The translations under genes and the position numbers were made by a program. The notes below the pieces were generated by a model. The model saw only the letters and a program-made list of their open reading frames with translations. It searched no databases and was not told where the DNA came from. Shown piece by piece: positions 5,629 through 32,000 of a stretch of 32,000 bases of DNA. This DNA is from Polynucleobacter sp. (GTDB lineage: Bacteria; Pseudomonadota; Gammaproteobacteria; Burkholderiales; Burkholderiaceae). Each line of letters starts with the position of its first letter. The first letter of the stretch is position 1. The stretch is taken from assembly GCA_964203875.1 (NCBI GenBank), contig CAXNNS010000001.1, positions 380,244-412,243 of the forward strand, in the 5' to 3' direction.

Positions 5629-6003
5629 TTACTTAGGTGAGCACGGCCACTTTTGAATCAGAGCATCAAAGGCCAGAGATGCATATGCCTCTTTCATTCT
5701 CTTGGGCTGAGTTTCAACATAATTCTTTACAACTATCAGCCTATCTCTAATATTCATATTATTCGGAACGCAGATCTTTTTATCGTAATGCGCATTGTCC
5801 TCAACCCCCAAGATTATCCCGACGCACAATCCTTGATTAAAACTTGCTTCTGCCGTTTTACTCAATAAAAGCCTATTACATTGAAGATTCAAGTTAGCCG
5901 TAGTTAGGTCAGGCATTTTGTTAGGATCCGACCCTGCAAAGGAGTTCGTACAGAATACGGTCAAGACAATAAGGGGTAGATTTAAGCCAACATTTTTCTT
6001 CAT
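5629..6003 (-). CDS. periplasmic Cys-containing protein, Rap1a/Tai4-like (T6SS immunity-like fold) guess
   Basis: 124-aa ORF with a signal peptide. The pattern C..(G)LCVGIILGVEDN....KKICVP...V..Y....P......A..A...WPC matches my recollection of Rap1a-type immunity proteins. Confidence 0.45.
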   Translation of the reverse strand: MKKNVGLNLPLIVLTVFCTNSFAGSDPNKMPDLTTANLNLQCNRLLLSKTAEASFNQGLCVGIILGVEDNAHYDKKICVPNNMNIRDRLIVVKNYVETQPKRMKEAYASLAFDALIQKWPCSPK

Positions 6004-7986: not shown

Positions 7987-8062
7987 TGGTGGCCCGGGGC
8001 GGAATCGAACCACCGACACAAGGATTTTCAATCCTCTGCTCTACCGACTGAGCTACCAGGCC
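7987..8062 (-). tRNA. tRNA-Phe (anticodon GAA), CCA encoded
   Basis: Reverse complement is GGCCTGGTAGCTCAGTCGGTAGAGCAGAGGATTGAAAATCCTTGTGTCGGTGGTTCGATTCCGCCCCGGGCCACCA. It is 76 nt, folds as a cloverleaf, has GAA at positions 34-36, and closely resembles E. coli tRNA-Phe. Confidence 0.95.
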
Positions 8063-9181: not shown

Positions 9182-9200
9182 GCGTCCAGCAACTAGACGC
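9182..9200. repeat. island palindrome, copy 1 (inverted orientation)
   Basis: gcgtccagcaactagacgc is the exact reverse complement of the copies at 23929 and 25647. The stem is extended by a flanking gg/cc pair. Confidence 0.7.
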
Positions 9201-9207
9201 CCAATTC

Positions 9208-10233
9208 TTAGATTAATACCTTCAAAATTACGTCGCGCTTTTGCTCGAGTGTATAACCTACAGTCCCATACATATTAAATTCACTGCCACCACTGCTATG
9301 CCCTGTAATGCTTTCTGCAAGACGTGTTGGTATGTCATTGCGAGCCTTCATCCTATCAATGATTGCGTGCCTAAACATATGGCTCTTAAAGTCAAATTCC
9401 TTTAATGTTTTTTTAATAATTTGTGAGCAACTTGAATTGCCATTGTCTCTCGCATAATGCGGCACAAACCACTCACTGCTTTTCTTTTTTGCAATCTTAT
9501 AAAGCTCTTTTGCAGCATCTAATGACACACCGCATAGCGGCACGGCTCTAATGCTGGACTTGGTTTTTCTATCACTTAAAGCATTTCGCCTAATCCACAA
9601 GTGCGGAATGTCATGATCTAAGACGCAATCGTCTAGTCTGGCAAACAAGGGCTCGCTTAGTCTAAATCCAGTATTAAGCTGAATTAAGGCAACCAACTTG
9701 TGTGGGGTTGAGTTCTTTAACAAATGCTCTTTTACTTGTTGTATCAACTGGGAGGTAATGATTGGCATTGAACGCTTTGTTTCGCCTTCACCCCTAATTT
9801 TCAATGCTCTAAATGGACTTAGCCTATCTATATCTAAATGTTTAAATGCGACATTGAGCATAGCGTTAAGCGTGTTGTTGTGTTTGCGAATACTGGTAGG
9901 GCTTAAACCCCTATTTAACTGATAGTCGCGATACTCTGTAATGTGCCAATGCTTGAGCTCATCTAAAGTTAAATCCCCAAAGAATTCCTTAAAGCTACGA
10001 AAGTGATAGTTTGCATGTTTAACAAATGTAGGGCGATGAGAGGATTTAGCTTCGTGCATATAAATCTCAAAAGCATCTGTAATTGTGGGTAGCCTGCCAC
10101 TTTTCTGTTTAGCCAAATGTTCGCTAATAACTTTAGCAATGAACTCTTCTTCAAAATTCATGCCATTGATATTTATTAAACGTTCTACTTTGTCAAAGAC
10201 GATTGGGTGAGGTTTTATTACGATTGCTCGCAT
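9208..10233 (-). CDS. tyrosine recombinase / integrase (Int1)
   Basis: 341-aa ORF with catalytic residues in NTGFRLSE (Arg), HMFRHAIID (His-x-x-Arg) and GHSSGG...YGTVGY (His, Tyr). Confidence 0.85.
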   Translation of the reverse strand: MRAIVIKPHPIVFDKVERLININGMNFEEEFIAKVISEHLAKQKSGRLPTITDAFEIYMHEAKSSHRPTFVKHANYHFRSFKEFFGDLTLDELKHWHITEYRDYQLNRGLSPTSIRKHNNTLNAMLNVAFKHLDIDRLSPFRALKIRGEGETKRSMPIITSQLIQQVKEHLLKNSTPHKLVALIQLNTGFRLSEPLFARLDDCVLDHDIPHLWIRRNALSDRKTKSSIRAVPLCGVSLDAAKELYKIAKKKSSEWFVPHYARDNGNSSCSQIIKKTLKEFDFKSHMFRHAIIDRMKARNDIPTRLAESITGHSSGGSEFNMYGTVGYTLEQKRDVILKVLI

Positions 10234-11632: not shown

Positions 11633-11651
11633 GCGTCTAGTTGCTAGACGC
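11633..11651. repeat. island palindrome, copy 2
   Basis: gcgtctag-ttg-ctagacgc forms a perfect 8-bp stem. Confidence 0.7.
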
Positions 11652-11895: not shown

Positions 11896-12462
11896 ATGGC
11901 TCAAGCAAAAACTCTTACTCAAGCAGAATTAGATCAAGTTCTGCGTTTTGTCTCTACAAAAAAATATGCGCAGCGAGACCGCGCACTGATTCTCACCAGC
12001 TTTTGGTCAGGCATGCGTGTGGGAGAAATAGCCGCACTCAAAATGGGCGATGTAGTTAATGAAGATGGCACGATTAAAAAAGAAATTCGCTTAAGTGCAT
12101 CGCAAACTAAAGGTGGACATGCCAGAACGGTGTTTATTCCAGCCAAGCTACAAACTGAACTACAAATTTACTTGAGTACTCGCCATGCCAAATTACCGCA
12201 CTTGCCATTCTTTCACAGCGCCAATCGCTTAGGCTTTTCTGCTAATAGCCTATGTCAATGGTTCTTTTGGACTTACCGCGCCGCTGGAATTTCGGGAGCA
12301 AGTAGTCACTCTGGCAGAAGATCCTTTCTGACTTCTCTGGCAAACAAAGGAATTGGCGTAAGAATACTGGCCAGCTTGGCAGGGCATAGATCAATAGCCG
12401 TAACGATGAAATATTTAGATGCTAACGATGATATGAAGAGAAACGCCGTAGAGCTTATTTAA
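11896..12462 (+). CDS. minimal tyrosine recombinase, catalytic domain only (Int2)
   Basis: 188-aa ORF with an ATG start and an AAGGAA sequence upstream. Catalytic residues lie in WSGMRVGE, HSGRRSF and LAGHRSIAVTMKYL. It lacks an N-terminal SAM-like or arm-binding domain. Confidence 0.8.
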   Translation: MAQAKTLTQAELDQVLRFVSTKKYAQRDRALILTSFWSGMRVGEIAALKMGDVVNEDGTIKKEIRLSASQTKGGHARTVFIPAKLQTELQIYLSTRHAKLPHLPFFHSANRLGFSANSLCQWFFWTYRAAGISGASSHSGRRSFLTSLANKGIGVRILASLAGHRSIAVTMKYLDANDDMKRNAVELI

Positions 12463-15069: not shown

Positions 15070-15098
15070 ATCAAGCGTCTAGGCTCTAGACGCTTGAT
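15070..15098. repeat. island palindrome, copy 3 (long-stem variant)
   Basis: atcaagcgtctag-gct-ctagacgcttgat forms a 13-bp perfect stem 8 nt after the stop codon of the ATPase gene. Confidence 0.65.
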
Positions 15099-15469: not shown

Positions 15470-15805
15470 ATGTACTCTAAAAATTATCTTAAACACGCAC
15501 ATAGTCATTGCTTTGCAAATCGCACGGCAATTGAAAAAAGTTTTCTATGCGGCTGTTTTGAATGCTGCTCTATATTTTCAGCCTTGCAAGTAAAAAGCTG
15601 GATAGAAGAAAGAAAAGACAGGGCTGATACTGGATTATGTCCATATTGCGATATTGATAGCATTATCGGGGACTACAGTCATGAAATTAATAAGTCTTTT
15701 TTAAGCGCAATGAATAAGGAATTTTTTAATAGCGATTTATCCTCAGAGTGTGTTTGTTTTGAAAGTTTTGAGGAATTATTTAATAGCTATCAATCGTTAG
15801 GCTAA
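15470..15805 (+). CDS. Cys-rich (zinc-binding-like) small protein
   Basis: I prefer the ATG at 15470 (MYSKNYLK). It has CGCFECC...CPYCDIDSIIG motifs, suggesting a zinc ribbon. Confidence 0.55.
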   Translation: MYSKNYLKHAHSHCFANRTAIEKSFLCGCFECCSIFSALQVKSWIEERKDRADTGLCPYCDIDSIIGDYSHEINKSFLSAMNKEFFNSDLSSECVCFESFEELFNSYQSLG

Positions 15806-17011
15806 TTTCTCAGCATTCATCATGGGAGTAAGCTTGGAATAATGTCGCTCAATCATGCCAACACTAGTGCCCATTTGCCTAGCAAGAGTATGGATATCAA
15901 CCCCTCTTGCTAAGGCGAATGTGGCATAGGTATGACGTAAGCTATATAAGGTTCTGTTCTGACCACCGCCATCTACCCGCATATTGCTACGAACCATTAA
16001 GTTACGAAAGATATTTTCCATGTTGCTAATTTGCTCGCCTGTTGGCAAACGGAATATCACCGCATCAACCTTAGCCTCAATCACTGCGTTGAGCCCCGAG
16101 TAAGGCAACTTCTGCCACTTCATTACTCGCTCCAATACCTTCACTACAGCAGTTCTCGCTATCAAATATCTAGGGCCCGTTTTACCTGACACCCAAATCC
16201 TTAAGTATTTCTTCTCCCCAATCCAATGCCATTGCAAATGTTTCCACCTGAGCGGCAACGCCTCCGTTCCATGCCGAACACCTGTATTAACTAAAAACTC
16301 GATGTAATAGGCGCATAGCGTTCTCATCAATGCCGTTCTATCTGTATAGCTACTCTTTTGCCAAGTTTCTGTATAGCTGAGTAACTCTTTGATTTCTTCT
16401 GCAGTAAAGGCGGGGCGGGGCTGGCTCTTTTTGCCCTTGCTATCTAGTAATGGCACGGCTTGATTCAATCCAATATAACCACGATCACGAGCTAGATTGA
16501 TCACACGGATATAGGCGCTTGCGTGATTACGTTTAGTACTCGCCATGGGGGTCTTGCCCATCTCGCTAATACGCCAAGCCTCAAAGTCACCTAATAATTC
16601 ATTAGTAATTTGACCGATCTCATAATGCCCAAAAAAGGGAATGAGATATTTGTTGATGGCAAAGGCATAGTCACGATAGATGCGCTTGCCCAGCTTGTTA
16701 TGTAAAGCCTGCGCCATATTGGCAAGCTCATCTAAAGCAATCTGCTTAAAGGTTTTGGTCACAACCGCCAAGCCAGCACCAACTTTGACTTTGACAGTTT
16801 CGTAAATGGCCATTGCTTGGGTTTGGGCTAAATCAGCATCTTCCGTAGCAGTAGAGGCTGCGTGCCATTGCCCATTGGGCAACTTAAAGCGGCATTGCCA
16901 CTTATTACTTTTGGCGCGCCGAAACAGGGTTAATTCACCACGCAACAAAGAGATTGTTTTGGGTGATGCTTGGTTTGTATTGGCAGGAAAGAGGTATTGA
17001 AAGTTTTGCAA
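15797..17011 (-). CDS. tyrosine recombinase / phage-type integrase (Int3)
   Basis: 404-aa ORF. The start is TTG and no in-frame ATG is nearby, so the start is uncertain. Catalytic residues lie in NTGVRHGT, LYSLRHTYATF and MIERHYSK. Confidence 0.85.
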   Translation of the reverse strand: MQNFQYLFPANTNQASPKTISLLRGELTLFRRAKSNKWQCRFKLPNGQWHAASTATEDADLAQTQAMAIYETVKVKVGAGLAVVTKTFKQIALDELANMAQALHNKLGKRIYRDYAFAINKYLIPFFGHYEIGQITNELLGDFEAWRISEMGKTPMASTKRNHASAYIRVINLARDRGYIGLNQAVPLLDSKGKKSQPRPAFTAEEIKELLSYTETWQKSSYTDRTALMRTLCAYYIEFLVNTGVRHGTEALPLRWKHLQWHWIGEKKYLRIWVSGKTGPRYLIARTAVVKVLERVMKWQKLPYSGLNAVIEAKVDAVIFRLPTGEQISNMENIFRNLMVRSNMRVDGGGQNRTLYSLRHTYATFALARGVDIHTLARQMGTSVGMIERHYSKLTPMMNAEKLA

Positions 17012-17016
17012 GTTCG

Positions 17017-17035
17017 GCGTCTAGTTACTGGACGC
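17017..17035. repeat. island palindrome, copy 4
   Basis: gcgtctagttactggacgc has one loop substitution relative to the consensus. It lies 6 nt upstream of the Int3 start. Confidence 0.7.
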
Positions 17036-17225
17036 TTGCTAGCTTAATTTCAGATTAGGATTTGGGCGACCAATAACTTATGGCTTTTTAGTTCGCCTAT
17101 TCCTCTGTTCAAACTTAATGGCCTCTTGTAGTAGAGCCTTTTGCTTCTCTTCTTCCTTGTGGCGCTTGATTAAGTCTTTGCCTGTAATGACTTGTTGATC
17201 CTTAAGCAAAGAGTCTAGCGTAGGC

Positions 17226-17438
17226 TTACTCTTCCCAGGGGAATCGTTCACGACTTAGCTCTTCCATAATTTCACTCTTACTCTGCGCAGACTTCTTCGA
17301 ACGATTTGTTCCATACTTTGCCCAATGTTCTCTATCCGCAATAATTTCATCCAGCTCATTCTTATAGTCTTCAGCAAAAGAGGTGAGTTTTTTGGGGTTC
17401 ATTCTCCCCACAAACTCTACGTTAGATTCGTCAGGCAT
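17226..17438 (-). CDS. small charged hypothetical protein, last gene of the Type ISP operon
   Basis: 70-aa ORF whose ATG lies 3 nt after the helicase stop codon. I recognise no family. Confidence 0.55.
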   Translation of the reverse strand: MPDESNVEFVGRMNPKKLTSFAEDYKNELDEIIADREHWAKYGTNRSKKSAQSKSEIMEELSRERFPWEE

Positions 17439-17441
17439 AAA

Positions 17442-18872
17442 TTAGTTAATTAAAGCCTCATAGAATCTTTTAATTGCAGGCTCGCAACGAACATCATTTA
17501 CTTTTATTGGGCGTTTTAGTCTTATTCCGCTCAAAGTCCGACATCTACTTAAGGCAACATAAACTTGCCCAGAGGCAAAAGCGCCTGCGGAGAGATCAAC
17601 ATTTACTTGATCCATTGTCTTGCCCTGGCTTTTGTGGATAGTGACGGCCCAAGCAAGCATCAAGGGAATTTGCTGATAGCTGCCAATTACTATTGGACTA
17701 ATTTTTCCAGTAGTTGAATCGAGTTCGTATTTGTAAGACTCCCACTTATGGCTATGCACATCAACAATGTTTGAATCAGTCTCAGTCTTAATTTCGACCC
17801 TCACAGACTCTCCAGTAAATTCCCTAACTATTCCTATAGTTCCATTTACCCATCGCTTTGGCATCGCCTTATCGTTGGCAGTAAACATTACGTGAGCCCC
17901 AACTTTTAACGTTAAATTCATTGGAGAGGGGAGATTGCGCTCATCCACATTAAATTTGCCATCAAGCAACCCTACAAACATAGTTGGAGAGTTTGAAATG
18001 GCATCCAACTCTTCTTCATTGATTGCATCCGCCCTAGCATTTGTAGTTGTAAGAGTTATGGCATAGGGGCTATTCAACTCCTGCTTTTCGAAGCACTCTC
18101 TGTTAAGAGTTTCAATGGCGACATCTATATCTTCATTAACTCGGATGTGATTGAGGATATCGGTAAATTCTCTATCTTTTTGACGGAAGATTTTTTGCAA
18201 TTCAATCATCGTCATTTCTTTGCCACTCAAGGCCATAGCGTTAAAGAAGTGGGCTTGCTCATAGCCCCTCTCTCTTAATAGCTCCATTTCGCTTGTATTA
18301 ATTACTGGCGGTAACTGGAAAAGATCACCAACAAACATAATCTGAACCCCGCCAAAAGGTTTGCCCTGTTGCGGACCATTCGCACGAAGAAACAGATCAA
18401 TAGCATCTACGATATCAGCCCTCACCATTGATATCTCATCAATGATTAATAAACGAATGCCCTCATACATTCGCCTATCTTTAACGACCTTAATGTCCTC
18501 TTCGGGGAAAATAATCCTCGGCGGCAAACGGAAGAAAGAGTGAATTGTTGCCCCCTTAACCTGAAGAGCGGCAACTCCAGTAGGCGCAACGACAACCACA
18601 TTACCAGCAACCTTGTCTCGTAAATACCCAATAAGTGTGGTTTTGCCCGTCCCCGCTTTACCGCTTACAAAGATAAAAGGATCGTGCGCATTAATGGCTT
18701 TAATTACCTCTTCGTAATCTGGAGTGACCTCGATCTCTTCGATGCTTTGAGTCGAGACTTCACTGGCGACGCCATGAGACTTAATCGGCGCCTTCAACGA
18801 AGCCTTTCTTAGCTCATCTACATTAGCCTTTTTTGAGCCAACAAATTCTTCAAGTTTCTTTAGGAAGCTCAT
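17442..18872 (-). CDS. SF1 PIF1/RecD-like DNA helicase
   Basis: 476-aa ORF with motifs GKAGTGKTT, VVVVAPTGVAAL, LLIIDEISMV, FVGDLFQLPPV, VTIHKSQGKT and YVALSRCR. Confidence 0.85.
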   Translation of the reverse strand: MSFLKKLEEFVGSKKANVDELRKASLKAPIKSHGVASEVSTQSIEEIEVTPDYEEVIKAINAHDPFIFVSGKAGTGKTTLIGYLRDKVAGNVVVVAPTGVAALQVKGATIHSFFRLPPRIIFPEEDIKVVKDRRMYEGIRLLIIDEISMVRADIVDAIDLFLRANGPQQGKPFGGVQIMFVGDLFQLPPVINTSEMELLRERGYEQAHFFNAMALSGKEMTMIELQKIFRQKDREFTDILNHIRVNEDIDVAIETLNRECFEKQELNSPYAITLTTTNARADAINEEELDAISNSPTMFVGLLDGKFNVDERNLPSPMNLTLKVGAHVMFTANDKAMPKRWVNGTIGIVREFTGESVRVEIKTETDSNIVDVHSHKWESYKYELDSTTGKISPIVIGSYQQIPLMLAWAVTIHKSQGKTMDQVNVDLSAGAFASGQVYVALSRCRTLSGIRLKRPIKVNDVRCEPAIKRFYEALIN

Positions 18873-18883
18873 TACCCAAAAGG

Positions 18884-21800
18884 CTATATGTCTAATTTTG
18901 GCAGGCTATTAACAATCTTCATTGTCTCTAAGCTAACCGTAATGACACGTTGATATAGCTTTAATGGATATGCTGGGTCATGCATTGTTTCTAAGGCCCA
19001 ATTATTTGCGTCATTCACAATGCCGCTATCTTTATGGGCTGTCACAGTCTGGCGCTCCATAACCCACTCCAAGGCTGGTCTTCCATTAATTATGTAATCA
19101 TAGGCTTCGAGTGGTATGCCTGCGATTGTAATTGCGTCGTTATAAATTACTTTCGTCTTATCGGACTTGCTTGCATACTTCATCTTACTTACTCTGTAGT
19201 GTGTATCCTTAGATAGAGTTTTATCAATAATCTCCACCGGATATGGATCAACAAATTCATATCCAATATGTAAGGCTGTTAGTTTTTTACCAGCTTCAAC
19301 AAAATCAATAAACGTAGAATATTTTTTTACGGCAGGTATGCGAGGAAGTTCCTTGCTTAAATTATCTGCGAATCTTTTTCTATAATCTTTGGAGTGCATT
19401 AATCCATACACGTAGTAGAAAAGCTGCTCTTTAGTAATAGACTCATTTGAATAATATTTTCTGAAATGATCTAGACCAGCATTCGTTATCCCATCTATTT
19501 CTTGGTAGCCATTTATCAAATTCTCCTCTGAATCATGAAGCCCAAAAAGATCTGCGTGAGAATTTTGATGATTTTCAGATTTTTCAATACGTTTATAAAG
19601 CTTGAAAGGGAAACATTGCGCGCCAGCCTCTAACATATTTAAATCGGGCAATGTATCTGACATGATTACAGATATTCCATTCCGACTACCAATTCCATTT
19701 ACGCATATAACTAAATTTTTAGCCTCTGGATACGGAAATATCGAAGGCATTTGATACCTTCGCTGATTCAAGTTTTTATTGAAATAAACCCATTGCTTTG
19801 AAAAGGGTCTATACATAGATTTTGTTATTGATTCTGGCTGAAATTCAATCTCAGTTTGTCGCGCTAAATCAGCCTTCAACGTATCAGTCCAGCTGATTTT
19901 TGTTGTATCTATATCAATAAATTTATTGATATCTGGGAGGCTCTTCTTATCTAGTCCTTTAGTTTCAATCTTAAGCTTGTTAAGCTGACTCCTATAGAAC
20001 TCCAACATTTTTAGTATATTTTTTTCTAATTGAAGTCTCGAAGAGTTATAGCACCATGCATCTCTATTTGTAGCAACTCCTAGAGAAAAATTTTCAAACA
20101 TTGCAACTTTAGAGGGATCTTTTTTATTTCCCAAACAAATATATTCAGCAAATGAATCGTCACGCTTATTAATCCAGTCGCCATATTTATCAGGCACAAC
20201 TTCATCCCAGGCTTCGCTAGCAGTAATCCCTTCTAAACTATTAAAGCTTCTAATTTTTTCTAATTTCTCATCAAGAGAAAGATCATTTCCAATATCGTGA
20301 TAGTAGATTTTTCCGTGCTCTATAGCTTCATCATTCTTAACCAAGATTGATATTGCTATGCCGGTCATACTTCCGCTATCAAATATATTTTGCCCTTCAC
20401 CAGCTGCGCCCTTGCTGAGCATATTTTTTCTGATATCACCTCGTAAATTAAAAATATAGAGGTTTGAAAATTCTTCAGACAAGCATTTTCTCATTCCATC
20501 CATTGCAGGCTTTTCAATAAAACTACTGCCTGAGACATAACCTACAACGCCTTTAGTTTTTAATCTATCACTTGCCCAACGGATCGCTCGAATATAACTA
20601 TCGTCCAAATTTGCTTTGAAAGTTGCAGTCGAATGCTCTTTATACGTTTCACGAATGCGCCTGTCTAGGTATGGATATTCAGTATTCTGGTTATTATCAT
20701 TCTCACTTTTTTGACCCGCAGAATAAGGGGGGTTGCCCATAATTACTCTTATATCCAGGGCCTTTTGCTTTTTTCTTCTTCCACTGTTATCGCTTATCTC
20801 AGGAGATGCTAAGTCCTCCTTCTCATAAAGAGCAAAAGTATCAGTTAAACAAATTCCATCAAATGGAACATATTCACCGCCAACTGTTGCGTGATAAACC
20901 TGCTCAATGTTGATTGCTGCGATGTAATAAGCAAGTAAAACAATTTCATTTGCATGTATCTCATTCTGATACTTGTAGGCTAATTGCTCTTTGCTTATTA
21001 GTCCACTCTGAATTAGCCGAGTTATAAATGTTCCGGTTCCTGTAAATGGGTCCAAGATATGAACATTCTTATCCCCCAATGCCTGATTAAATTCGTGTCG
21101 CAATACATCATTAATGCTATGAATGATGAAATCTACCACTTCTACGGGGGTGTAAACGATTCCCAACTTTTCCGTCATTTTAGGAAATGCATTCCTAAAA
21201 AACTTATCGTAAAGCTCAACAATAATTTTTTGTTTGGCTCCAAGATCATCAATGCCTTGAGCTCGCATCTTCACACTTGCATAAAACTTTTCTAAAGTAT
21301 CAACTTCCTTGTCTAGGCTATGCTCATTAAGAGCATTTAGAACTCCTTGCATAGCCTTGGATACAGGGTTATGTTGCGCAAAACTATAGCCCTCAAAAAG
21401 CGCATCAAATACTGGTTTAGTAATAATGTGCTGAGCCAGCATTTCAATAGCCTCTTCACGGCTAATGCTGTCATTAAGATCTTCTTTTAGCTCTTTTAGA
21501 AATTTATTGAATGCCTTTATCTCAGTTTTATTTTCAGCGTTATCTAATATTGCAGTAATACGACTTATGTGAGTCTGAGCAATCTTTGCAATATCTTTCG
21601 CCCAATCGTCCCAATAAAAACGGTTGCCACATTTCTGCACCACCTTAGCCATAATGGCGCGCTCAATCTCACCAATTTCAATATTGAGCTCTGCCTGCTT
21701 AGGATCTTGGTAATTTTGAGGCGATGAACCAATCACGCTGCCTTTAGCCTTTTTGATCTTTGGCTTGCCTTTACCAGCCTCTGCACCGCCGCCTTCAGGT

Positions 21801-23854
21801 TTCTTTTTAGGACTTATTTTGTCTGTGATCGCAATCACTTCCATCTTGGATCTATCTTGACCAGCTAAATCCAACTTATTAATCATTGCATCAAAGCGGT
21901 CATCATGGGAGCGCAGAGCCTGCAAAACCTCCCAAACAACCTTGTAACTCTTGTTGTCATTCAACGCTTCCTCAGGACTCATGCCTGTTGGAATAACAAC
22001 TGGAAGAATTACATAACCAAGCTGTTTTTTGCTATCTTTTGGTTTACGCATTACACGACCAACAGACTGCACAACATCAACTTGTGAATTTCTTGGGGTT
22101 AGAAATAAAACAGCGTCCAAAGCAGGAACATCAACGCCCTCAGATAGGCAGCGGACATTACTCAGAACACGGCAAGTATTTTCAGGAAGTTCGGCTTTTA
22201 ACCAATCGAGCTTTTCTTCTTTTTGTGCAGCATTCATGCTGCCATCAACGTGAGCAGCTTCACAAATTAACTGACTAACTGCATCCTCATGCTCTGGATT
22301 TTCTTTGATTAAAGCCGCGCGATACTCATCAACTACTTTTTGGAACATGCCTGCAATATTTTTACTACTGACCTTATGGGTCTTGGCGCCTTTATTAATC
22401 TCAATAACTTGGCAGAAAGCAACAGCTCTCTTCATGGGCTCTGGATCAAGCTCTAAATCTACTTGTGTATCTTGCTTGGATAGGGCTCTCCAACACCCAA
22501 CAATTTTTGCAGCATCATCTACACGTAAGCTATTATTTTCGTCCGCCAATACTTTTTGTAGATTTTTGCTGATGTGGTCTTCGCTGACGGTAAGAACAAT
22601 AACCTTGTAATCAACCAATATCCCACGCTTAACCGCCTCAGAGAAAGAGAGTGTATGTAACGTCTTTCCATACTGCTCTTCATTGTCCATGTCATATAGA
22701 ACAATGCTGTCATTCTCAGCCTTAGCTTTAGCTGCAACACCATAAACTCTTGGTGTTGCTGTCATATAGATGCGTTTTTTAGATTTAATGAAATCTGCGT
22801 TGTGTATTTTTACAAAGGCAGATTCATCTTCTCCATCGTAAATAGCGCCAGTTGTCCTATGCGCCTCATCACAAATGATTAAATCAAAGCCTGGTAACTC
22901 ATTTTTCTTTTGCGCATCCGAAATTACTTGAATTGAATGGTAGGTTGAGAAGATGACATTCAGATGTTCATCATCTTTACGTTTATTAAATTCGTTGGCT
23001 AAAGCTTTTGGATTGGTTGTAGCGGGATAACGAAGTTCATGCACCAACATCTGATAGTCATCATCTTTGTCGCGCTTCTTACCAACTTCGCTATCAGAAC
23101 AGACAGCAAAGCTATGCATCGGCAGGGTGGACTCCTGAGTCCACTCAGTGAGCGTCTGCGACAACAGTGAAAGTGATGGAACTAGAAATAGAACTCTTCC
23201 GCCTTTCCCTGCAACTTCTTCAGCCAATCTCAAGGCTGTAAAAGTTTTACCAGTGCCACAAGCCATAATCAGCTTGCCTCTGTCAGCGGTTTCTAGTCCA
23301 TAACTCACATTCTGAATGGCATTACGCTGATAATCTCTAATGCTTTTTGGCTCTTGCAGAACAACTTCTTTTTTCTTAAAAGTTTCTGCCCAATTTATTT
23401 TGCTATTCTCGAGGTCGCTGAGCGTTATCTTCTGCGTCGGGGTATTTTGCCCTTGCATCGCATCGTCTACGTGATGGCTGACATTATCTGTTGTCAAAAT
23501 TAACAAACGTTGTGTAAAGGGTTTTTTACCTGATGCTGTAAAAAACGAATCAATGTGTCGTTTGTAAAGTGTAGTTTCAGAATCGTAAAATTTTGCCTGA
23601 ATTGCGTGATACTCATTGGTCTGTTTTGTTCTCGCAACTAAATCAATACCAGTATCTGTACCAGGATCAGAATTGCCATGCTCTATCCAATATTTACGCC
23701 AGTCTTCCCACAACCAAACAGCCTCATATAGATCTTTATATTTCGGCTCATTTTCAAAATAGATCTTTGAGAGATTTTCAAAATAATTACCTTTCTCCCT
23801 TTCTGATTGTGAGGAGGCACGAAAGGTATCTAAAACATCTCTTAATGCGGTCAT
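18884..23854 (-). CDS. Type ISP-like single-polypeptide restriction-modification enzyme (nuclease, SF2 motor, N6-adenine MTase, TRD)
   Basis: 1656-aa ORF. It has an Mrr/PD-(D/E)xK-like N-terminus (GIDLVA...IQAKFY). The SF2 motor motifs are MACGTGKT, IICDEAHR, YMTATPR, LSEGVDVP and QSVGRVMR. The gamma-class methyltransferase motifs are ILDPFTGTGTF and IMGNPPYS. A C-terminal specificity-like region contains YRPFSKQWVYF. Confidence 0.85.
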   Translation of the reverse strand: MTALRDVLDTFRASSQSEREKGNYFENLSKIYFENEPKYKDLYEAVWLWEDWRKYWIEHGNSDPGTDTGIDLVARTKQTNEYHAIQAKFYDSETTLYKRHIDSFFTASGKKPFTQRLLILTTDNVSHHVDDAMQGQNTPTQKITLSDLENSKINWAETFKKKEVVLQEPKSIRDYQRNAIQNVSYGLETADRGKLIMACGTGKTFTALRLAEEVAGKGGRVLFLVPSLSLLSQTLTEWTQESTLPMHSFAVCSDSEVGKKRDKDDDYQMLVHELRYPATTNPKALANEFNKRKDDEHLNVIFSTYHSIQVISDAQKKNELPGFDLIICDEAHRTTGAIYDGEDESAFVKIHNADFIKSKKRIYMTATPRVYGVAAKAKAENDSIVLYDMDNEEQYGKTLHTLSFSEAVKRGILVDYKVIVLTVSEDHISKNLQKVLADENNSLRVDDAAKIVGCWRALSKQDTQVDLELDPEPMKRAVAFCQVIEINKGAKTHKVSSKNIAGMFQKVVDEYRAALIKENPEHEDAVSQLICEAAHVDGSMNAAQKEEKLDWLKAELPENTCRVLSNVRCLSEGVDVPALDAVLFLTPRNSQVDVVQSVGRVMRKPKDSKKQLGYVILPVVIPTGMSPEEALNDNKSYKVVWEVLQALRSHDDRFDAMINKLDLAGQDRSKMEVIAITDKISPKKKPEGGGAEAGKGKPKIKKAKGSVIGSSPQNYQDPKQAELNIEIGEIERAIMAKVVQKCGNRFYWDDWAKDIAKIAQTHISRITAILDNAENKTEIKAFNKFLKELKEDLNDSISREEAIEMLAQHIITKPVFDALFEGYSFAQHNPVSKAMQGVLNALNEHSLDKEVDTLEKFYASVKMRAQGIDDLGAKQKIIVELYDKFFRNAFPKMTEKLGIVYTPVEVVDFIIHSINDVLRHEFNQALGDKNVHILDPFTGTGTFITRLIQSGLISKEQLAYKYQNEIHANEIVLLAYYIAAINIEQVYHATVGGEYVPFDGICLTDTFALYEKEDLASPEISDNSGRRKKQKALDIRVIMGNPPYSAGQKSENDNNQNTEYPYLDRRIRETYKEHSTATFKANLDDSYIRAIRWASDRLKTKGVVGYVSGSSFIEKPAMDGMRKCLSEEFSNLYIFNLRGDIRKNMLSKGAAGEGQNIFDSGSMTGIAISILVKNDEAIEHGKIYYHDIGNDLSLDEKLEKIRSFNSLEGITASEAWDEVVPDKYGDWINKRDDSFAEYICLGNKKDPSKVAMFENFSLGVATNRDAWCYNSSRLQLEKNILKMLEFYRSQLNKLKIETKGLDKKSLPDINKFIDIDTTKISWTDTLKADLARQTEIEFQPESITKSMYRPFSKQWVYFNKNLNQRRYQMPSIFPYPEAKNLVICVNGIGSRNGISVIMSDTLPDLNMLEAGAQCFPFKLYKRIEKSENHQNSHADLFGLHDSEENLINGYQEIDGITNAGLDHFRKYYSNESITKEQLFYYVYGLMHSKDYRKRFADNLSKELPRIPAVKKYSTFIDFVEAGKKLTALHIGYEFVDPYPVEIIDKTLSKDTHYRVSKMKYASKSDKTKVIYNDAITIAGIPLEAYDYIINGRPALEWVMERQTVTAHKDSGIVNDANNWALETMHDPAYPLKLYQRVITVSLETMKIVNSLPKLDI

Positions 23855-23928
23855 ATTTGGCTATTTTGTCAATTTAAGTATTCCATTAGATTACCATGCG
23901 ACCTTATCAAATTACCCTTTACTTACAA

Positions 23929-23947
23929 GCGTCTAGTTGCTGGACGC
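23929..23947. repeat. island palindrome, copy 5 (consensus)
   Basis: gcgtctagttgctggacgc sits in the divergent region between the Type ISP gene and the 24049 gene. Confidence 0.7.
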
Positions 23948-24048
23948 TCATACAAAATTAGCAATTTATTCAACATTTTTTAACAGGCTCACTTAATGAG
24001 CCTATAACCCTCTAATCTCCTTCTCAAGACCACATTTAGGAGATAGTC

Positions 24049-24363
24049 ATGAAATACCTACTCACCATATTTCTGCTTGCCCAAGCAGCCCTATACGCAC
24101 AAAAGAGCTTTGCTCAAGTTACTAATTTAGATAACTCGCCCTACAACATGCAAAACAGCCAATACAACATGGATAACTCACCCTACAACATGCGCAATAG
24201 TCCATACAACATGGATAACAGCGCATATAACGCCAGCGCCAAGAATGGGGTTTATGACAACTCAGGCAATCGAGTCGGCTATGAAGTTAAGGCGCCCAGT
24301 GGCGTAACCAACTACTTTGACAACTCAGGCAATCGAATTGGCTACACACCCTGGAAGAGATAG
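24049..24363 (+). CDS. secreted Asn/Tyr-rich repeat protein
   Basis: 104-aa ORF with a signal peptide (MKYLLTIFLLAQAALYAQKSFAQ) and an AGGAG sequence upstream. It has five heptad repeats (x-NSPYNM), encoded by 5 x 21 bp at 24130-24234, plus a duplicated DNSGNR(V/I)GY motif. Confidence 0.65.
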   Translation: MKYLLTIFLLAQAALYAQKSFAQVTNLDNSPYNMQNSQYNMDNSPYNMRNSPYNMDNSAYNASAKNGVYDNSGNRVGYEVKAPSGVTNYFDNSGNRIGYTPWKR

Positions 24364-24367
24364 CGAC

Positions 24368-24616
24368 ATGCTTTTTAGCGCAATCATTCTTAGTTTTGTG
24401 ATGCCTATGCAAGTTTCTATGGGCAATCCTAAATTTGAGCCCTTCATTGTTAAAGCAACAGTCGACGCAGCCGTTCTTATTGGCCTTCCATCTTCGAAAG
24501 CAGCAAGGAAATATGCCCTACAAGCGCAAAAGCCTGAATTCTTAATGGTAGAAGCGCTTTTGGTATCAGAACCCGTTAACTGGAGAAGGCTGTACTTTAG
24601 AAAGCTTTTCTCTTGA
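24368..24616 (+). CDS. possible small hypothetical protein
   Basis: 82-aa ORF from the ATG at 24368. No clear Shine-Dalgarno sequence and weak coding evidence. Confidence 0.3.
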   Translation: MLFSAIILSFVMPMQVSMGNPKFEPFIVKATVDAAVLIGLPSSKAARKYALQAQKPEFLMVEALLVSEPVNWRRLYFRKLFS

Positions 24617-24677: not shown

Positions 24678-25646
24678 ATGGGTGATGTGGAGCGCTTACA
24701 CAAAATTAAGTACATGATTCAGGCACGTCAATGCGTTCCGCTGAATGACTTTCTCAATGAACTCGAAATATCAAAAGCGACATTCAAAAGAGATCTTGAA
24801 TATCTACGAAGCAGAATGAATGCCTCCATTGTTTACGACCGATTCAAGGGTGGTTATTGCTTTGATGGACAAGTCGTTGGCGAAAAGATTGAGTTACCTG
24901 GTTTATGGTTTTCCGAAAAAGAAGCTACTGCACTAGTTCTCATGCAACACCTTCTATCAGGCTTAGATAAGGGGGGCTTAATTGAACCCCACATTGCTCC
25001 GCTTACCTCAATCATTGATGGCATTCTTGGACAGAGCAATACGCCAGCCAAAGAGCTACGCAAAAGACTAAAAGTATTTGGGATGTCTGCCCGTAAAGGT
25101 TCTATTGAGAACTTCGAGGAAATAGGAAGCGCACTACTAAAGCGCAACCGATTACAAATTACATACTATGCCCGCGGCACCAATGAAACTACTGAGCGTG
25201 AAACATCACCTCAACGGCTAATCTTTTATAGAGACAACTGGTACTTAGATGCTTACTGCCATTTGCGAAAAGACTTAAGAAGCTTTGCTCTTGATGGCAT
25301 CAGCAAAGCAATGATTACGAATACAAAGTCAGAAGAGATTTCTGAAAAACAATTGCATGAACACTTTGCTGAAAGTTATGGAATTTTCTCAGGCAAAGCG
25401 AATCAAAGGGCTAAGCTAAAGTTCTCTCCCGAGAAAGCAAGATGGGTAAGTAGTGAAACATGGCATGGTCAACAAGTGGGCACTTTCGATAAAAAAGGCA
25501 ATTACCTTTTGGAGTTTGATTACAACCAAGATCCTGAGCTTGTCATGGATATATTGAAATATGGGTCGGGGGTTGAGGTTTTAGCGCCAGCTAGCTTACG
25601 CAAGTGCGTTAAAGATGAGCTTGCCAATGCATTGGGTAATTATTGA
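24678..25646 (+). CDS. WYL-domain transcriptional regulator (BrxR/CapW-like architecture)
   Basis: 322-aa ORF with an N-terminal wHTH (ISKATFKRDLEYLRS), a central WYL domain (FYRDNWYLDAYCH) and a C-terminal extension. AAGGAAG lies upstream of the ATG. Confidence 0.85.
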   Translation: MGDVERLHKIKYMIQARQCVPLNDFLNELEISKATFKRDLEYLRSRMNASIVYDRFKGGYCFDGQVVGEKIELPGLWFSEKEATALVLMQHLLSGLDKGGLIEPHIAPLTSIIDGILGQSNTPAKELRKRLKVFGMSARKGSIENFEEIGSALLKRNRLQITYYARGTNETTERETSPQRLIFYRDNWYLDAYCHLRKDLRSFALDGISKAMITNTKSEEISEKQLHEHFAESYGIFSGKANQRAKLKFSPEKARWVSSETWHGQQVGTFDKKGNYLLEFDYNQDPELVMDILKYGSGVEVLAPASLRKCVKDELANALGNY

Positions 25647-25665
25647 GCGTCTAGTTGCTGGACGC
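25647..25665. repeat. island palindrome, copy 6 (consensus)
   Basis: gcgtctagttgctggacgc starts on the base after the WYL gene's stop codon. Confidence 0.7.
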
Positions 25666-25700
25666 TAAATACTTATTACGAGATGGAATTAGAATAAATC

Positions 25701-26405
25701 ATGCCTATCTCCATAGATATTAATTTTGACTTTAGGTCAGATACTCCGCCAGGAAAGGATCCCGATAGCTATAGCTCAACACTTCGCTCTTACCATCGGC
25801 GCCTTTGGAGCAAACCTCTGCCTAATGGCAAGCCGTTTGAGCTAATTGACTCCAAAGAAGGGGCTTATCTTTATCACCACTCTGAGTTAGGTGAATTTTT
25901 CTTATCCAGTGACTCTGCAATACACAGCTTCAGCAAGTGGGCAAGCATGGCTCACATCATTAGCCAATTTAGGAATGGTGAGGTTGAGGCATTTAAATCT
26001 CTTGGATATACGATCGGCGGCATGATAATTTTTCCAGGAAACCGAATAGATGGGAAGGCGACTATCAATGGGGCTAGAGGTTTTCATCCTCTAATAAGGG
26101 ATCGAATTGACCTAACCCTGGAATGCATAAGATGCCATTACAAAAATGAAAGCAGCCCACTTGAAGATACGCTGTCACGCTATAGTGATTTCTTCGCCCT
26201 GTTTGATAGCTTCAAGGGGTATGTGGACTTCTTCTTATTGAATGACTTAGTGAGTAAAGACTATTCAGAGATTGGGTTTTTCATGCCTTTTGAGAATTTT
26301 AAAACTCCTGCCGTTCCCAAAACTTTTGACTCCTACTGCGGCTACAAAGACTTAGCCATGAGCTTTGTTAATAAAAGAAATCAGCGCATTCTTTCATCCA
26401 TATAG
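25701..26405 (+). CDS. hypothetical 234-aa protein downstream of the WYL regulator
   Basis: Clean ATG ORF 54 nt after the WYL gene on the same strand. No signal peptide or transmembrane segment. I see no catalytic motif I can name. Confidence 0.7.
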   Translation: MPISIDINFDFRSDTPPGKDPDSYSSTLRSYHRRLWSKPLPNGKPFELIDSKEGAYLYHHSELGEFFLSSDSAIHSFSKWASMAHIISQFRNGEVEAFKSLGYTIGGMIIFPGNRIDGKATINGARGFHPLIRDRIDLTLECIRCHYKNESSPLEDTLSRYSDFFALFDSFKGYVDFFLLNDLVSKDYSEIGFFMPFENFKTPAVPKTFDSYCGYKDLAMSFVNKRNQRILSSI

Positions 26406-28853: not shown

Positions 28854-30155
28854 ATGTTAATAGAATTTAGCGTAGCAAATTTCAAATCTATTCTTGAACG
28901 CCAAACCCTGAGCATGGTGGCCAGCGCAGACTCTGAACATGCTGAAAAAAATGTAATCGAACTCCCCGGCGAAACAATTAAATATCTGAAATCGGCGGTT
29001 GTTTACGGACCAAATGCTGCGGGCAAGAGCAACCTCTTAAAGGCCATGCTTGTATTACAACAACTTATCCTTCATTCCGCCTCCTCCCAAGAAGGCATTC
29101 CAATGATTGGCATTACACCTTTTCTACTGGATGGGAATATTCCAGACGAGCCTTCTGAATTCAACATCATCTTCATAGCAAACGATGGCGTGAAATATGA
29201 ATATCATTTTTCTGCAACACCAAAAGCGGTTGAAAAAGAGTGGATGGTTGCCTATCCGAATGGCAGGCCGCAGCGTTGGTTTGAGCGCGAACTAAATAAA
29301 ACAACCGGCAAATACGAGTGGTGGTTTGGCTCGAAGTTTAAAGGCGAAAAGGCAGAGAGAAAAGTTTGGCAAGACTTCACCAGAAATAATTCTTTGTTTT
29401 TTTCTACCGCAGTTCAGCTAAACAACGAACAACTTAAAACTCCTTTTGGGTGGATAGCCAATCAACTTATTGTCATAACATCGGGTATTGACCTTAACCC
29501 ATGGCTCAGCATTAATCTTATTAAGAATAATGAAGGCCATAAAATTCTTGATTACTTGCAAGCCGCTGATATTGGAATTGACGGGATTGATATTAAAGAA
29601 GAGGATTTGCCCCCTCAAGCCCATTTCATAGGCGGCAATCCTTTTATGCAGGCGATTGGCGCAATGAACTTCAACCATGGCGCACCTGAAGATGCTGCGG
29701 GACAAAAACCAAAAATGATTAGGGTTACAACTACGCACAAAAATACAGAAACCAATGAGGTGGTTCAGTTAAGCATTGAGGATGAATCCGAAGGCACTAG
29801 AAAGCTATTTAATCTAACTGGCGGCTGGATTAGATCGCTTGATATTGGAGCAACCTTATTGGTGGATGAACTTGAAAGAAGTCTTCATCCAAAGATAACC
29901 CGATTTTTAGTTGAGCTTTTTCATAGTAATAAAAATCAAAGCAATGCTCAATTAATTTTTACAACGCACGATACAAATCTTTTGGACACCTCTTTATTGA
30001 GAAGAGATCAAATTTGGTTTGTCGAGAAAAACAATGGCAAGGCAACACATCTTTATTCCTTGCTCGATTACAACCCGCGCAAAGAAGAGGCTTTGGAGCG
30101 AGGATACCTAAAAGGCAGGTATGGGGCAGTTCCTGTTGTGGGGGAAATTAATTAA
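28854..30155 (+). CDS. AAA_15/AAA_21-type ATPase (AbiLi/RloA-like)
   Basis: 433-aa ORF with Walker A GPNAAGKSN, Walker B LLVDELERSLHP and FTTHDTNLLD. It has the ABC/OLD-like ATPase architecture. Confidence 0.85.
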   Translation: MLIEFSVANFKSILERQTLSMVASADSEHAEKNVIELPGETIKYLKSAVVYGPNAAGKSNLLKAMLVLQQLILHSASSQEGIPMIGITPFLLDGNIPDEPSEFNIIFIANDGVKYEYHFSATPKAVEKEWMVAYPNGRPQRWFERELNKTTGKYEWWFGSKFKGEKAERKVWQDFTRNNSLFFSTAVQLNNEQLKTPFGWIANQLIVITSGIDLNPWLSINLIKNNEGHKILDYLQAADIGIDGIDIKEEDLPPQAHFIGGNPFMQAIGAMNFNHGAPEDAAGQKPKMIRVTTTHKNTETNEVVQLSIEDESEGTRKLFNLTGGWIRSLDIGATLLVDELERSLHPKITRFLVELFHSNKNQSNAQLIFTTHDTNLLDTSLLRRDQIWFVEKNNGKATHLYSLLDYNPRKEEALERGYLKGRYGAVPVVGEIN

Positions 30156-30799
30156 TGCCATCTCGTAGGCTATCAACACTAAGAAGCGAAAGATCGTTTT
30201 CTAGAAAGGCTGGAAAGACTCCACCTAAAGAGGTAACCTTGATTGTTTGCGAGGGCGAAACAGAGACTAAATATCTAAAAACTCTTTGTCAAACCCTTAG
30301 ACTTACTACCGCCAGCATATATGTTTGTGATAACGGCACCGATTCTGCTCCAATTAATTTGGTGAACAGAGCAGAAAGGCTCAATCTAACCAACGATGGC
30401 TACGACCATATTTATTGCGTGTTTGATAAAGATGTTCATGAAAGTTTCAACAGGGCCAGAGAAAGAATACAAGCCTTAAACAAACGCAGCAGAAAACCCC
30501 TTCCTATTAAAGAGGCTATTAGCATCCCATCATTTGAGCTATGGATATTGCTCCACTATGAACAAACCGATCGCTCATTTAATAACTCTGCCGAGGTGGT
30601 TAGATATATTACAAATCAAAATCACATACGAGCTTATAAAAAAGCTGATGATTCAATTTGTCAGGAACTAGTCGAGAAACTTGAAACCGCGATTGCTAAT
30701 GCTGTTTGGCTTGAAAAACGCGGTCACACTAAAAATGAAAATCCGATGACGAATGTTCACAAACTTGTAGAACACATAAAAGAAATTTCTATTAAATAA
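30155..30799 (+). CDS. RloB-like (TOPRIM-like) protein (AbiLii-like)
   Basis: 214-aa ORF whose start overlaps the ATPase stop codon (TAATG). Motifs are LIVCEGETETKYL, YCVFDKDVH and PSFELWILLHY. Confidence 0.8.
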   Translation: MPSRRLSTLRSERSFSRKAGKTPPKEVTLIVCEGETETKYLKTLCQTLRLTTASIYVCDNGTDSAPINLVNRAERLNLTNDGYDHIYCVFDKDVHESFNRARERIQALNKRSRKPLPIKEAISIPSFELWILLHYEQTDRSFNNSAEVVRYITNQNHIRAYKKADDSICQELVEKLETAIANAVWLEKRGHTKNENPMTNVHKLVEHIKEISIK

Positions 30800-31212: not shown

Positions 31213-32000
31213 TCATTGCAACAACATGGGTTGATTCTGCAATAGTTTGGGTACTTGGGTTTGGGGTGCTGGTGGCCTATAACCTAATGCACTATGGGGC
31301 CTAACATGGTTATAGTGCTTGACCCACTCCCCCACGATGATCTGGGCTTCTTTTAGGCTATAAAAGATCTCCCCATCCAGTAAGTTATCCCTGAAGGTGC
31401 CGTTAAAGCTTTCACAAAAGCCATTCTCCCAAGGACTGCCTGGAGTAATGTAGGCAGTTTTGACGCCAATGCCGGCAAGCCACTTGCGCAGGTCTTTGGC
31501 AATAAATTCTGGACCGTTATCCGAGCGTATGTACTCTGGGATACCGTTTTCAATCATGGCATTAGCCAGTTGTTCAATGACTTGGATTGATCCAATTCTT
31601 CTGGCGCAGAAGATCGTTAAACACTTTCTACTGAACTCATCAATTATCGTGAGCATGCGGATCTTGCCACCATAGGCATCTCTGATAAAGACAAAATCGT
31701 AACTCCAAACATGATTGAGGTGAGTAGCCCTCAGGCGCATACAACTACCATCGGAGAGCCAGAGTCTGCCTCTAGGAGGCTGCTTTTGCGGGATCTTTAG
31801 ACCTTCCTCTCGCCAGATGCGAGCTACTTTTGCGGTAGTTGCCTGACCCCAACCGCTATTACGCATCATGCCCGCAATAAATCGATAACCGTAACGGCCA
31901 TAAGTGCTGGCCATGCGGATAACTTCAGCCCTCAGCGGCTTTTCATCATCTCTGGGCAGCGGCATGTACCGATACGCTGCTCTGGATAGCCCCACTAAAC
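31213..32000 (-). CDS. IS3-family transposase OrfB (rve/DDE domain); N-terminal part runs off the window
   Basis: The frame stays open to base 32000. Motifs are HVWSYDFVF, IRSDNGPEF, SPWENGFCESFNGTFRD and YNHVRPHSALGYRPP. The IS end lies somewhere in 31020-31212 and cannot be fixed without the other end. Confidence 0.85.
   Translation of the reverse strand, partial: LVGLSRAAYRYMPLPRDDEKPLRAEVIRMASTYGRYGYRFIAGMMRNSGWGQATTAKVARIWREEGLKIPQKQPPRGRLWLSDGSCMRLRATHLNHVWSYDFVFIRDAYGGKIRMLTIIDEFSRKCLTIFCARRIGSIQVIEQLANAMIENGIPEYIRSDNGPEFIAKDLRKWLAGIGVKTAYITPGSPWENGFCESFNGTFRDNLLDGEIFYSLKEAQIIVGEWVKHYNHVRPHSALGYRPPAPQTQVPKLLQNQPMLLQ

Follow-up and report, generated by a model that had tools for sequence, protein, structure and literature searches.

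Which of three closely spaced genes in a Polynucleobacter genomic island belong to one and the same defense system? The stretch that raises this question, referred to here as the window, comprises 32,000 nt of Polynucleobacter sp. DNA (GenBank assembly GCA_964203875.1, contig CAXNNS010000001.1, positions 380,244–412,243). It contains three open reading frames (ORFs), all on the minus strand, that encode a 1656-aa Type ISP restriction-modification enzyme (18884–23854), a 476-aa PIF1-family helicase (17442–18872) and a 70-aa protein (17226–17438). The first two are separated by 11 nt and the last two by 3 nt. A first-pass annotation had reported these same-strand ORFs and gaps, which proved correct when the coordinates were re-read, and had proposed that the three genes form a separately acquired composite defense system with the small protein as an adaptor or regulator.

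Comparison with related loci divides the three genes differently. The ISP and helicase genes (17438–23900) form, with near certainty on the comparative evidence, a mobile two-gene cassette that is carried as cargo in an exchangeable slot (17443–23985, delimited by blastn breakpoints against loci L002–L006, L001 and L097). The 70-aa gene lies outside this cassette, in the right-hand flank of the slot. For this reading as a whole, in which the cassette has two genes, the helicase is an accessory and the 70-aa gene belongs to the flank, we put the probability at roughly 0.55; its structural part, the cassette and the flank, is close to certain, whereas the specific role of the helicase stands well below even odds.

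In P. paneuropaeus (L002), as in the metagenome contigs L003–L006, the 70-aa gene occupies the corresponding place in the island. These islands carry an AAA ATPase, a 260–270-aa protein, a 188-aa recombinase, DUF6641 and a ~340-aa integrase on one side, and a 104-aa gene and a WYL regulator on the other, as in the window. In every case the 70-aa gene comes immediately after the cargo and points the same way, but the cargo differs: a 207-aa protein, an Eco57I-like methylase and a T5orf172/ResIII protein in L002, and an EcoRI-type methylase with a GmrSD/HNH protein in L003–L006. Aligned to these loci with blastn, the window shows homology at 17099–17439/17442 and again at 23986–24612, with none between; the flanks are 79–84% identical, and no more than a few bases separate the breakpoint from the start codon of the 70-aa gene. 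The slot is thus a defense hot spot: its flanks are fixed, and a single site is occupied by at least three unrelated restriction cargos. The segment that the 70-aa gene forms with an overlapping 57-aa gene is also absent after ISP and helicase in six contexts (L001, L010–L013/L264, L037, L094, the P0116 contig and L097/L259). L097 and L259 hold copies of 81–90% identity in the same slot, and there the 404-aa integrase comes straight after the helicase.

A composite of all three genes would explain why they share a strand, why the gaps are 11 and 3 nt with no predicted terminator between, and why the 70-aa gene always sits directly downstream of the cargo in the same orientation. The comparative data already contradict it. 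The same gene stands behind an Eco57I-like methyltransferase with a T5orf172/ResIII protein and behind an EcoRI-type methylase with a GmrSD-like protein, homology to these other-cargo loci starts at its start codon, and it is missing from six other ISP-plus-helicase contexts, including the closely related copies in the same slot. We consider a three-component system scarcely credible. A gene-neighborhood check that had been set beforehand points the same way, tying the 70-aa gene to the island backbone behind two unrelated cargos. Because the gene is linked to this backbone whatever the cargo, and is missing from ISP-plus-helicase pairs elsewhere, its association with the ISP gene is incidental. 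The 70- and 57-aa genes are, to judge from these alignments, fixed furniture of the slot outside the ISP system, and are probably co-transcribed with whatever cargo sits upstream. What stands of the separately acquired module is that ISP and helicase travel together as an acquired unit; the 70-aa gene is not part of it.

That the remaining two genes move as a pair is seen most directly in P. finlandensis (L001), where the pair is housed in another island, with a P4-type integrase next to it and gyrA not far away. By blastn, homology between this locus and the window covers exactly 17438–23900 and is interrupted only in the specificity domain. Eight helicases of the clade were inspected, at 56–90% identity: P0012, P0010, P0015, P0019, P0087, P0091 and P0116, plus L037 from a scan driven by the ISP sequence. 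All eight adjoin a Type ISP gene, in at least five different surroundings and with a spacing of 0–17 nt; in L094 the ISP and helicase genes are divergent and 211 nt apart. The integrases near the sampled pairs are different or absent. Co-occurrence with Type ISP genes, which had been put forward for the helicase and the small protein alike, holds for the sampled helicases of this clade but not for the 70-aa gene.

How general is this pairing? The ISP-driven scan covered species-level genomes and 80 full-length relatives of the enzyme (57–77% identity, many phyla), with at least 1.5 kb of downstream sequence required. A Pif1-like gene lay downstream in 5 of the 68 loci with enough sequence (~7%), and all five helicase matches in ~0.9 Mb of ISP flanks fell within 1.5 kb downstream, on the ISP strand. 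A second scan, of metagenomes, was driven by the helicase, seeded with the gammaproteobacterial ISP-adjacent clade and required at least 3 kb upstream; an ISP gene was found upstream in 4 of 43 helicase loci, and these ISPs are 41–56% identical to that of the window; the four loci include L193 and L239. Adjacency to an ISP gene recurs in at least three more distant Pif1 lineages; the distant ISP-adjacent helicases are those of L021, L047, L090, L179 and L181, together with L193 (52% identical to the window helicase) and L239 (~43%). In the gammaproteobacterial clade, ISP and helicase are often separated by a nuclease gene, either for a YqaJ exonuclease or for a YhcG (DUF1016) PD-(D/E)xK enzyme (L047, L090, L181). 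The resulting nuclease-plus-Pif1 pairs are downstream of an ISP gene in three loci (L047, 11497–13722; L181, 7071–9446; L090, 10892–13467) and stand alone in a fourth (L182, 3779–6241).

Several observations weigh against a dedicated partnership. Most sampled ISP relatives have no Pif1-like gene downstream, as the ~7% figure implies, and no Pif1 match occurs in any of the 60 best ISP plasmid records, which include several plasmids of ~9.5 kb; the helicase thus fails as a general partner of Type ISP enzymes. The closest ISPs outside the immediate clade that have enough downstream sequence (L016, L017 and L029, 69–70% identity) have no helicase, and in an unbootstrapped neighbor-joining ISP tree helicase-linked enzymes are interspersed with unlinked ones. 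The YqaJ-plus-Pif1 pair of L182 occurs without an ISP. A 454-aa helicase that is 73% identical to that of the window (L095, 5239–7154, and L096) is coupled to something else altogether, overlapping the stop codon of a 183-aa ArdA-like ORF that matches a PHROG anti-restriction protein at 9e-6. Beside this helicase and ArdA-like ORF we also noted an MmeI-type enzyme, a DEAD helicase and a T5orf172 protein. Strict co-phylogeny of ISP and helicase was considered and is unsupported, as the unbootstrapped neighbor-joining trees are only partly congruent. From the two scans and the interleaved ISP trees it follows that the pairing is, on present sampling, recurrent and far above chance, yet facultative and repeatedly gained or lost. 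Its absence from most ISPs shows that the helicase is not universally required for ISP function; it would be a facultative accessory.

The same observations invite a simpler explanation, in which the helicase is an independent neighbor, a stand-alone defense, anti-defense or element-maintenance gene that hitch-hikes with the ISP gene as island cargo and shares no mechanism with it. Most ISPs do lack the helicase, its 73%-identical relative has an ArdA-like gene as its partner, close to an MmeI-type system, a YqaJ-plus-Pif1 pair exists without an ISP, an integrase comes immediately after the helicase in L097 and L259, and the best PHROG match is to phage Dda-like helicases. Hitch-hiking of this kind fits less well with helicases of the clade that are ISP-adjacent in 8 of 8 cases, across at least five surroundings and two orientations and with nearby integrases that differ or are absent, or with cassette boundaries that enclose exactly two genes. 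It also leaves unexplained the adjacency in at least three further Pif1 lineages with 41–56% identical ISPs, the five helicase matches in ~0.9 Mb of ISP flanks that all lie no more than 1.5 kb downstream on the same strand, and the finding that none of 80 viral Pif1 loci has an ISP. We regard an independent neighbor as unlikely, although it is the strongest of the competing explanations.

The enzyme at the center of the cassette is of a familiar kind. Judged by its Pfam, PADLOC and PDB matches, the 1656-aa protein is a complete Type ISP restriction-modification enzyme of the LlaGI/LlaBIII type, with all five domains and intact catalytic motifs. It begins with an Mrr-like PD-(D/E)xK nuclease domain (aa 35–163, 23366–23752; PF13156 Mrr_cat_2, 2.6e-42), whose D71 and Q86-x-K88 are invariant in three ISP homologues. 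There follow, likewise on the minus strand, a superfamily 2 (SF2) helicase-like translocase (aa 171–603, 22046–23344; PF04851 ResIII 1.1e-28, PF00271 Helicase_C 2.6e-09 and PF00270) and the Type ISP coupler domain (aa 747–870, 21245–21616; PF22240 ISP_coupler 7.6e-53 over the full model length). The C-terminal half holds an N6-adenine methyltransferase (aa 876–1133, 20456–21229; PF02384 N6_Mtase 2.1e-06 and PF07669 Eco57I 1.8e-04) and a target-recognition domain (aa 1252–1632, 18959–20101; PF18135 Type_ISP_C 4.3e-108). The motor motifs GTGKT, DEAH and QSVGRVMR (QxxGRxxR) and the methyltransferase motifs FTGTGTF and NPPY are all legible in the translation, and NPPY is invariant in homologues. 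The nuclease, SF2 DEAH motor, NPPY methyltransferase and specificity region that the first-pass annotation had read in a single chain were each confirmed by the Pfam profile search. The PADLOC model REase_MTase_IIG matches the protein over its full length (2289 bits), and among solved structures LlaBIII (4XQK) matches it end to end with 1241 bits and LlaGI (5FFJ) with 1161 bits. The target-recognition domain is both the most AT-rich (35.5% GC) and the most divergent segment of the enzyme, and it is here, at ~19117–20044, that DNA homology to L001 and L097 breaks. The enzyme itself is an ordinary further member of a known family.

The helicase is equally well preserved. The 476-aa protein is an SF1B (superfamily 1B) helicase of the PIF1 family (PF05970, 2.2e-30) with an N-terminal extension of ~45 aa (MSFLKKLEEFVGSKK...). 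Among solved structures it is closest to bacterial, human and yeast Pif1 (E-values 8e-98 to 4e-42). SF1 motifs I–VI and the Pif1 signature region between motifs II and III are present, and GKAGTGKT, IIDEISM, PFGGVQ..FVGDLFQLPPV, TIHKSQG and YVALSR are invariant across the aligned relatives, which bears out the earlier description of an intact SF1 helicase with all PIF1/RecD motifs. Against plasmids, the helicase finds only relatives of 41% identity or less, and no record in common with the 60 best ISP plasmids; against viral contigs there is one match at 67% and the rest are at most 43%, none with an ISP.

The nearest relatives that are not linked to an ISP gene are the 454-aa ArdA-coupled form described above and a 442-aa paralogue in Polynucleobacter core context (67% identical). 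This paralogue (L007–L009, 8001–9329) is without the ~45-aa N-terminal extension and lies in a neighborhood of thrC, moeA, moaE and AtuA with no ISP. Because the core 442-aa forms nest among the ISP-linked helicases in an unbootstrapped neighbor-joining tree, and because the base composition of the helicase gene is near the window average, the data suggest that the helicase was recruited from, or exchanged with, the Polynucleobacter host lineage of Pif1. The N-terminal peptide itself (MSxLxKLxxxVGxK; aa 1–45, window 18738–18872) has a looser form, MxIWxKIAxLAxxILGD, in distant Pif1 representatives of 45–54% identity. As a marker of ISP linkage this peptide was rejected, being carried by many unrelated representatives and by the ISP-less helicase of L182.

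What might a second motor do for such an enzyme? By homology to LlaGI/LlaBIII, the ISP protein is expected to leave its asymmetric site methylated on one strand, to move along DNA that lacks the modification, and to cleave at the point where two enzymes running toward each other meet. PMC4666363 describes cleavage by ISP enzymes after the collision of two translocating monomers, and structural models in which the nuclease domains lie more than 30 bp apart, so that it takes multiple random nicks to give a double-strand break; at head-to-tail sites only nicks result. The helicase gene, tightly spaced behind the ISP gene (0–17 nt) and probably co-transcribed with it, is predicted to encode a motor of the 5'–3' polarity of the Pif1 family. 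We infer from the linkage that this motor would load at the nicks or ends left by ISP collision complexes. By unwinding the duplex from one distant nick to the next, or by supplying an exonuclease with ends, it could then turn nicks into irreparable breaks and make the damage irreversible. A role in DNA-end processing would fit because YqaJ and YhcG nucleases often lie between ISP and helicase in the distant lineages. If nick-to-break conversion is correct, restriction would be extended to head-to-tail or single-site DNA.

The helicase might instead protect the host. As a Pif1/Rrm3-like 'sweepase', it would clear translocating or stalled ISP enzymes from the chromosome, or help replication forks past them, and so lower the cost of carriage; the premise is that Type ISP sites are hemimethylated, so that ISP motors would load on one daughter duplex after replication. 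Protein displacement and the bypass of fork barriers are established activities of the Pif1 family (yeast Pif1/Rrm3, T4 Dda), the closest relatives of the helicase include the chromosomal core-context paralogue of the same genus, and the helicase appears dispensable for ISP function in other hosts. Protective and offensive roles would look alike in sequence, however, and the nuclease partners in distant lineages fit DNA degradation better than the clearing of barriers. A purely protective role strikes us as improbable, more so than an independent neighbor.

Taken together, it is the linkage of the two genes that points to a joint function. We tentatively propose that a subset of Type ISP enzymes has recruited a Pif1 helicase as a dedicated second motor, either for nick-to-break conversion or for clearing ISP motors from the hemimethylated chromosome; this is possible, with the odds clearly against it. 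In Polynucleobacter, the recruited helicase may derive from the host's own Pif1 lineage.

The 70-aa gene, although no part of the cassette, deserves a description of its own. The ORF is a genuine gene: it has homologues (257 matches; those among the 120 matches listed are 58–105 aa long, mostly 70 aa), 30 of them align with a near-invariant C-terminus, and substitutions favor third codon positions. The 57-aa gene of the same flank module (17078–17251, minus strand), which overlaps the end of the 70-aa gene by 26 nt and is called as a 56-aa gene in L003–L006, likewise has a conserved translation and third-position substitution bias. Neither protein matches a family in Pfam, NCBIfam, PADLOC or PHROGs, and the 70-aa family finds only noise among PDB sequences (E at least 0.47). 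An AlphaFold2 model of the 70-aa protein consists of helices, with a mean per-residue confidence (pLDDT) of 69 and a predicted template-modeling score (pTM) of 0.33, too weak to search for similar folds. On the other side of the slot, the left-hand conserved flank (23986–24612, plus strand; 79–81% DNA identity to L002–L006) holds the gene for a 104-aa secreted repeat protein (24049–24363) and a 99-aa ORF. The 104-aa protein has a signal peptide and five tandem 7-aa repeats, DNSPYNM, that arise from a 21-nt DNA repeat at 24130–24234.

The 404-aa tyrosine integrase (15797–17011, minus strand; PF00589) is the gene that directly follows the helicase in the sister loci without the 70/57-aa segment. 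In the window, the layout of helicase, 70/57-aa genes and 404-aa integrase (15797–17442) is a mosaic relative to related loci; in the loci with other cargo, the 70/57-aa genes are followed directly by the AAA ATPase, with no integrase.

Base composition and palindromes had also been taken as signs of a separately acquired operon. The cassette is slightly lower in GC than the window (39.3% versus 41.7%), as the reported AT-richness implied, but the drop is confined to the methyltransferase and target-recognition half of the ISP gene (35.5–37%), with average values for the helicase (42.6%) and the 70-aa gene (42.3%). At third codon positions, GC content is 33.6% in the ISP gene and ~41% (41.1%) in the helicase gene, the latter close to the window average. 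The two palindromes said to bracket the module both exist, at 17017–17035 (GCGTCTAGTTACTGGACGC) and at 23929–23947 (GCGTCTAGTTGCTGGACGC, in the cargo-specific region upstream of the ISP gene), but the window contains six exact copies of this 19-nt hairpin, GCGTCYAG-N3-CTRGACGC, where none would be expected by chance. The other copies are at 9182–9200, 11633–11651, 15075–15093 and 25647–25665, and most of the six lie a few bases 3' of stop codons. No copy of this hairpin is present in the syntenic loci of other Polynucleobacter strains. As cassette borders the palindromes were rejected on these grounds and for their mismatch with the boundary on the 70-aa side; they look like strain-specific elements resembling repetitive extragenic palindromes (REP-like). 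A promoter and terminator scan of 16900–24100 returned no more sites than in shuffled sequence.

The DNA that carries the slot is a tRNA-Phe genomic island of freshwater Polynucleobacter. For the helicase and for the 70-aa protein alike, every named relative comes from Polynucleobacter, and most matches are freshwater metagenome sequences. The tRNA-Phe gene found by ARAGORN (7987–8062, minus strand) is the probable attachment end of the island, a 341-aa integrase lies at 9208–10233, and island DNA extends from this side to an insertion sequence at ~31.2 kb. Island content includes three tyrosine recombinases, a regulator with helix-turn-helix (HTH), WYL and WCX domains, DUF6994 and an AbiL-like AAA_21+RloB pair. 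The HTH-WYL-WCX regulator (24678–25646, plus strand; BrxR/CapW-like architecture; Pfam WYL and WCX, PADLOC WYL 2.5e-40) is a conserved neighbor of the slot, found in L002, L003, L097 and L259.

Other genes of the region add to this setting. The WYL regulator and DUF6994 after it (24678–26405) are defense-type genes beside the slot, as is the AbiL-like pair (28854–30799; PADLOC AbiLi 2.5e-98, AbiLii 1.8e-25). A 188-aa tyrosine recombinase (11896–12462, plus strand), made up of a catalytic domain alone, is present in every related island and lies directly upstream of the ISP gene in another island type (L010–L013, L264). L012 contains tandem units of a 341-aa protein, a 318-aa protein and the 188-aa recombinase, with a cargo of RT (reverse transcriptase) and Abi_C, a layout that may reflect islands built from cassette-like modules. 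The core side of tRNA-Phe holds a Rap1a-like protein (type VI secretion system immunity; 5629–6003, minus strand) and an HTH_38+rve transposase-like gene (3278–4231, plus strand), and at the far island end is an rve-family (integrase core domain) transposase (31213–31995, minus strand).

The cassette of ISP and Pif1 appears to be undescribed. That no accessory helicase has been described for Type ISP enzymes, as the first-pass annotation had remarked, agrees with our literature search, which found no publication combining Type ISP with Pif1 or describing an ISP-associated helicase, and no PADLOC model covers the pair. We know of no characterized Pif1 protein with a described role in a restriction-modification system, and to our knowledge few physiological roles have been assigned to bacterial Pif1 helicases; the pairing suggests a possible one. 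Type ISP is the textbook restriction system in a single polypeptide, and for the conversion of distant nicks into lethal breaks 'multiple random nicking' is still the sole explanation. A pairing with Pif1 that recurs and is mobile offers a concrete two-gene handle on this step. If the proposal were true, Type ISP, a class regarded as 'self-sufficient', would have its first described accessory factor, and bacterial Pif1 would have a role in defense. The pairing should be modestly surprising to a restriction specialist, and its functional meaning is read from the linkage. Recognizing the 70-aa gene as hot-spot furniture keeps a false three-component system off candidate lists. The slot, for which we found no description in the literature, is a new cargo site in abundant freshwater bacteria that can be mined for other defense genes.

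How do these elements compare with known systems? The window enzyme resembles LlaGI and LlaBIII of Lactococcus plasmids (5FFJ, 4XQK) in being one polypeptide with the order Mrr nuclease, SF2 motor, coupler, gamma-type N6A (N6-adenine) methyltransferase and target-recognition domain. It differs in being chromosomal island cargo in a betaproteobacterium, and in the tightly spaced Pif1-family gene that follows it, which plasmid ISPs of the LlaGI/LlaBIII type lack (none among the 60 best records). The helicase shares its full core and all motifs with bacterial Pif1 proteins (Bacteroides BaPif1 5FHD/5FTB, 6S3E-type PIF1 and 8BNS; E-values 8e-98 to 1e-70), but unlike them it is genetically coupled to a restriction enzyme, and it has the ~45-aa N-terminal peptide that is missing from the 442-aa core paralogue. 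The degradation of restriction fragments by RecBCD is a conceptual parallel, in that a helicase, with or without a nuclease, acts after restriction damage; the window helicase, in contrast, is encoded in the restriction cassette, is of the SF1B type and has no nuclease domain. Finally, the slot is a typical defense hot spot. Like those of P2/P4, the Pseudomonas core defense hot spots and the WYL/BrxR-associated islands (PMC9122601), it has fixed flanks, an HTH-WYL-WCX neighbor and swappable restriction cargo; its own flanks are a gene for a small secreted repeat protein and the 70/57-aa gene pair, set in a Polynucleobacter tRNA-Phe island.

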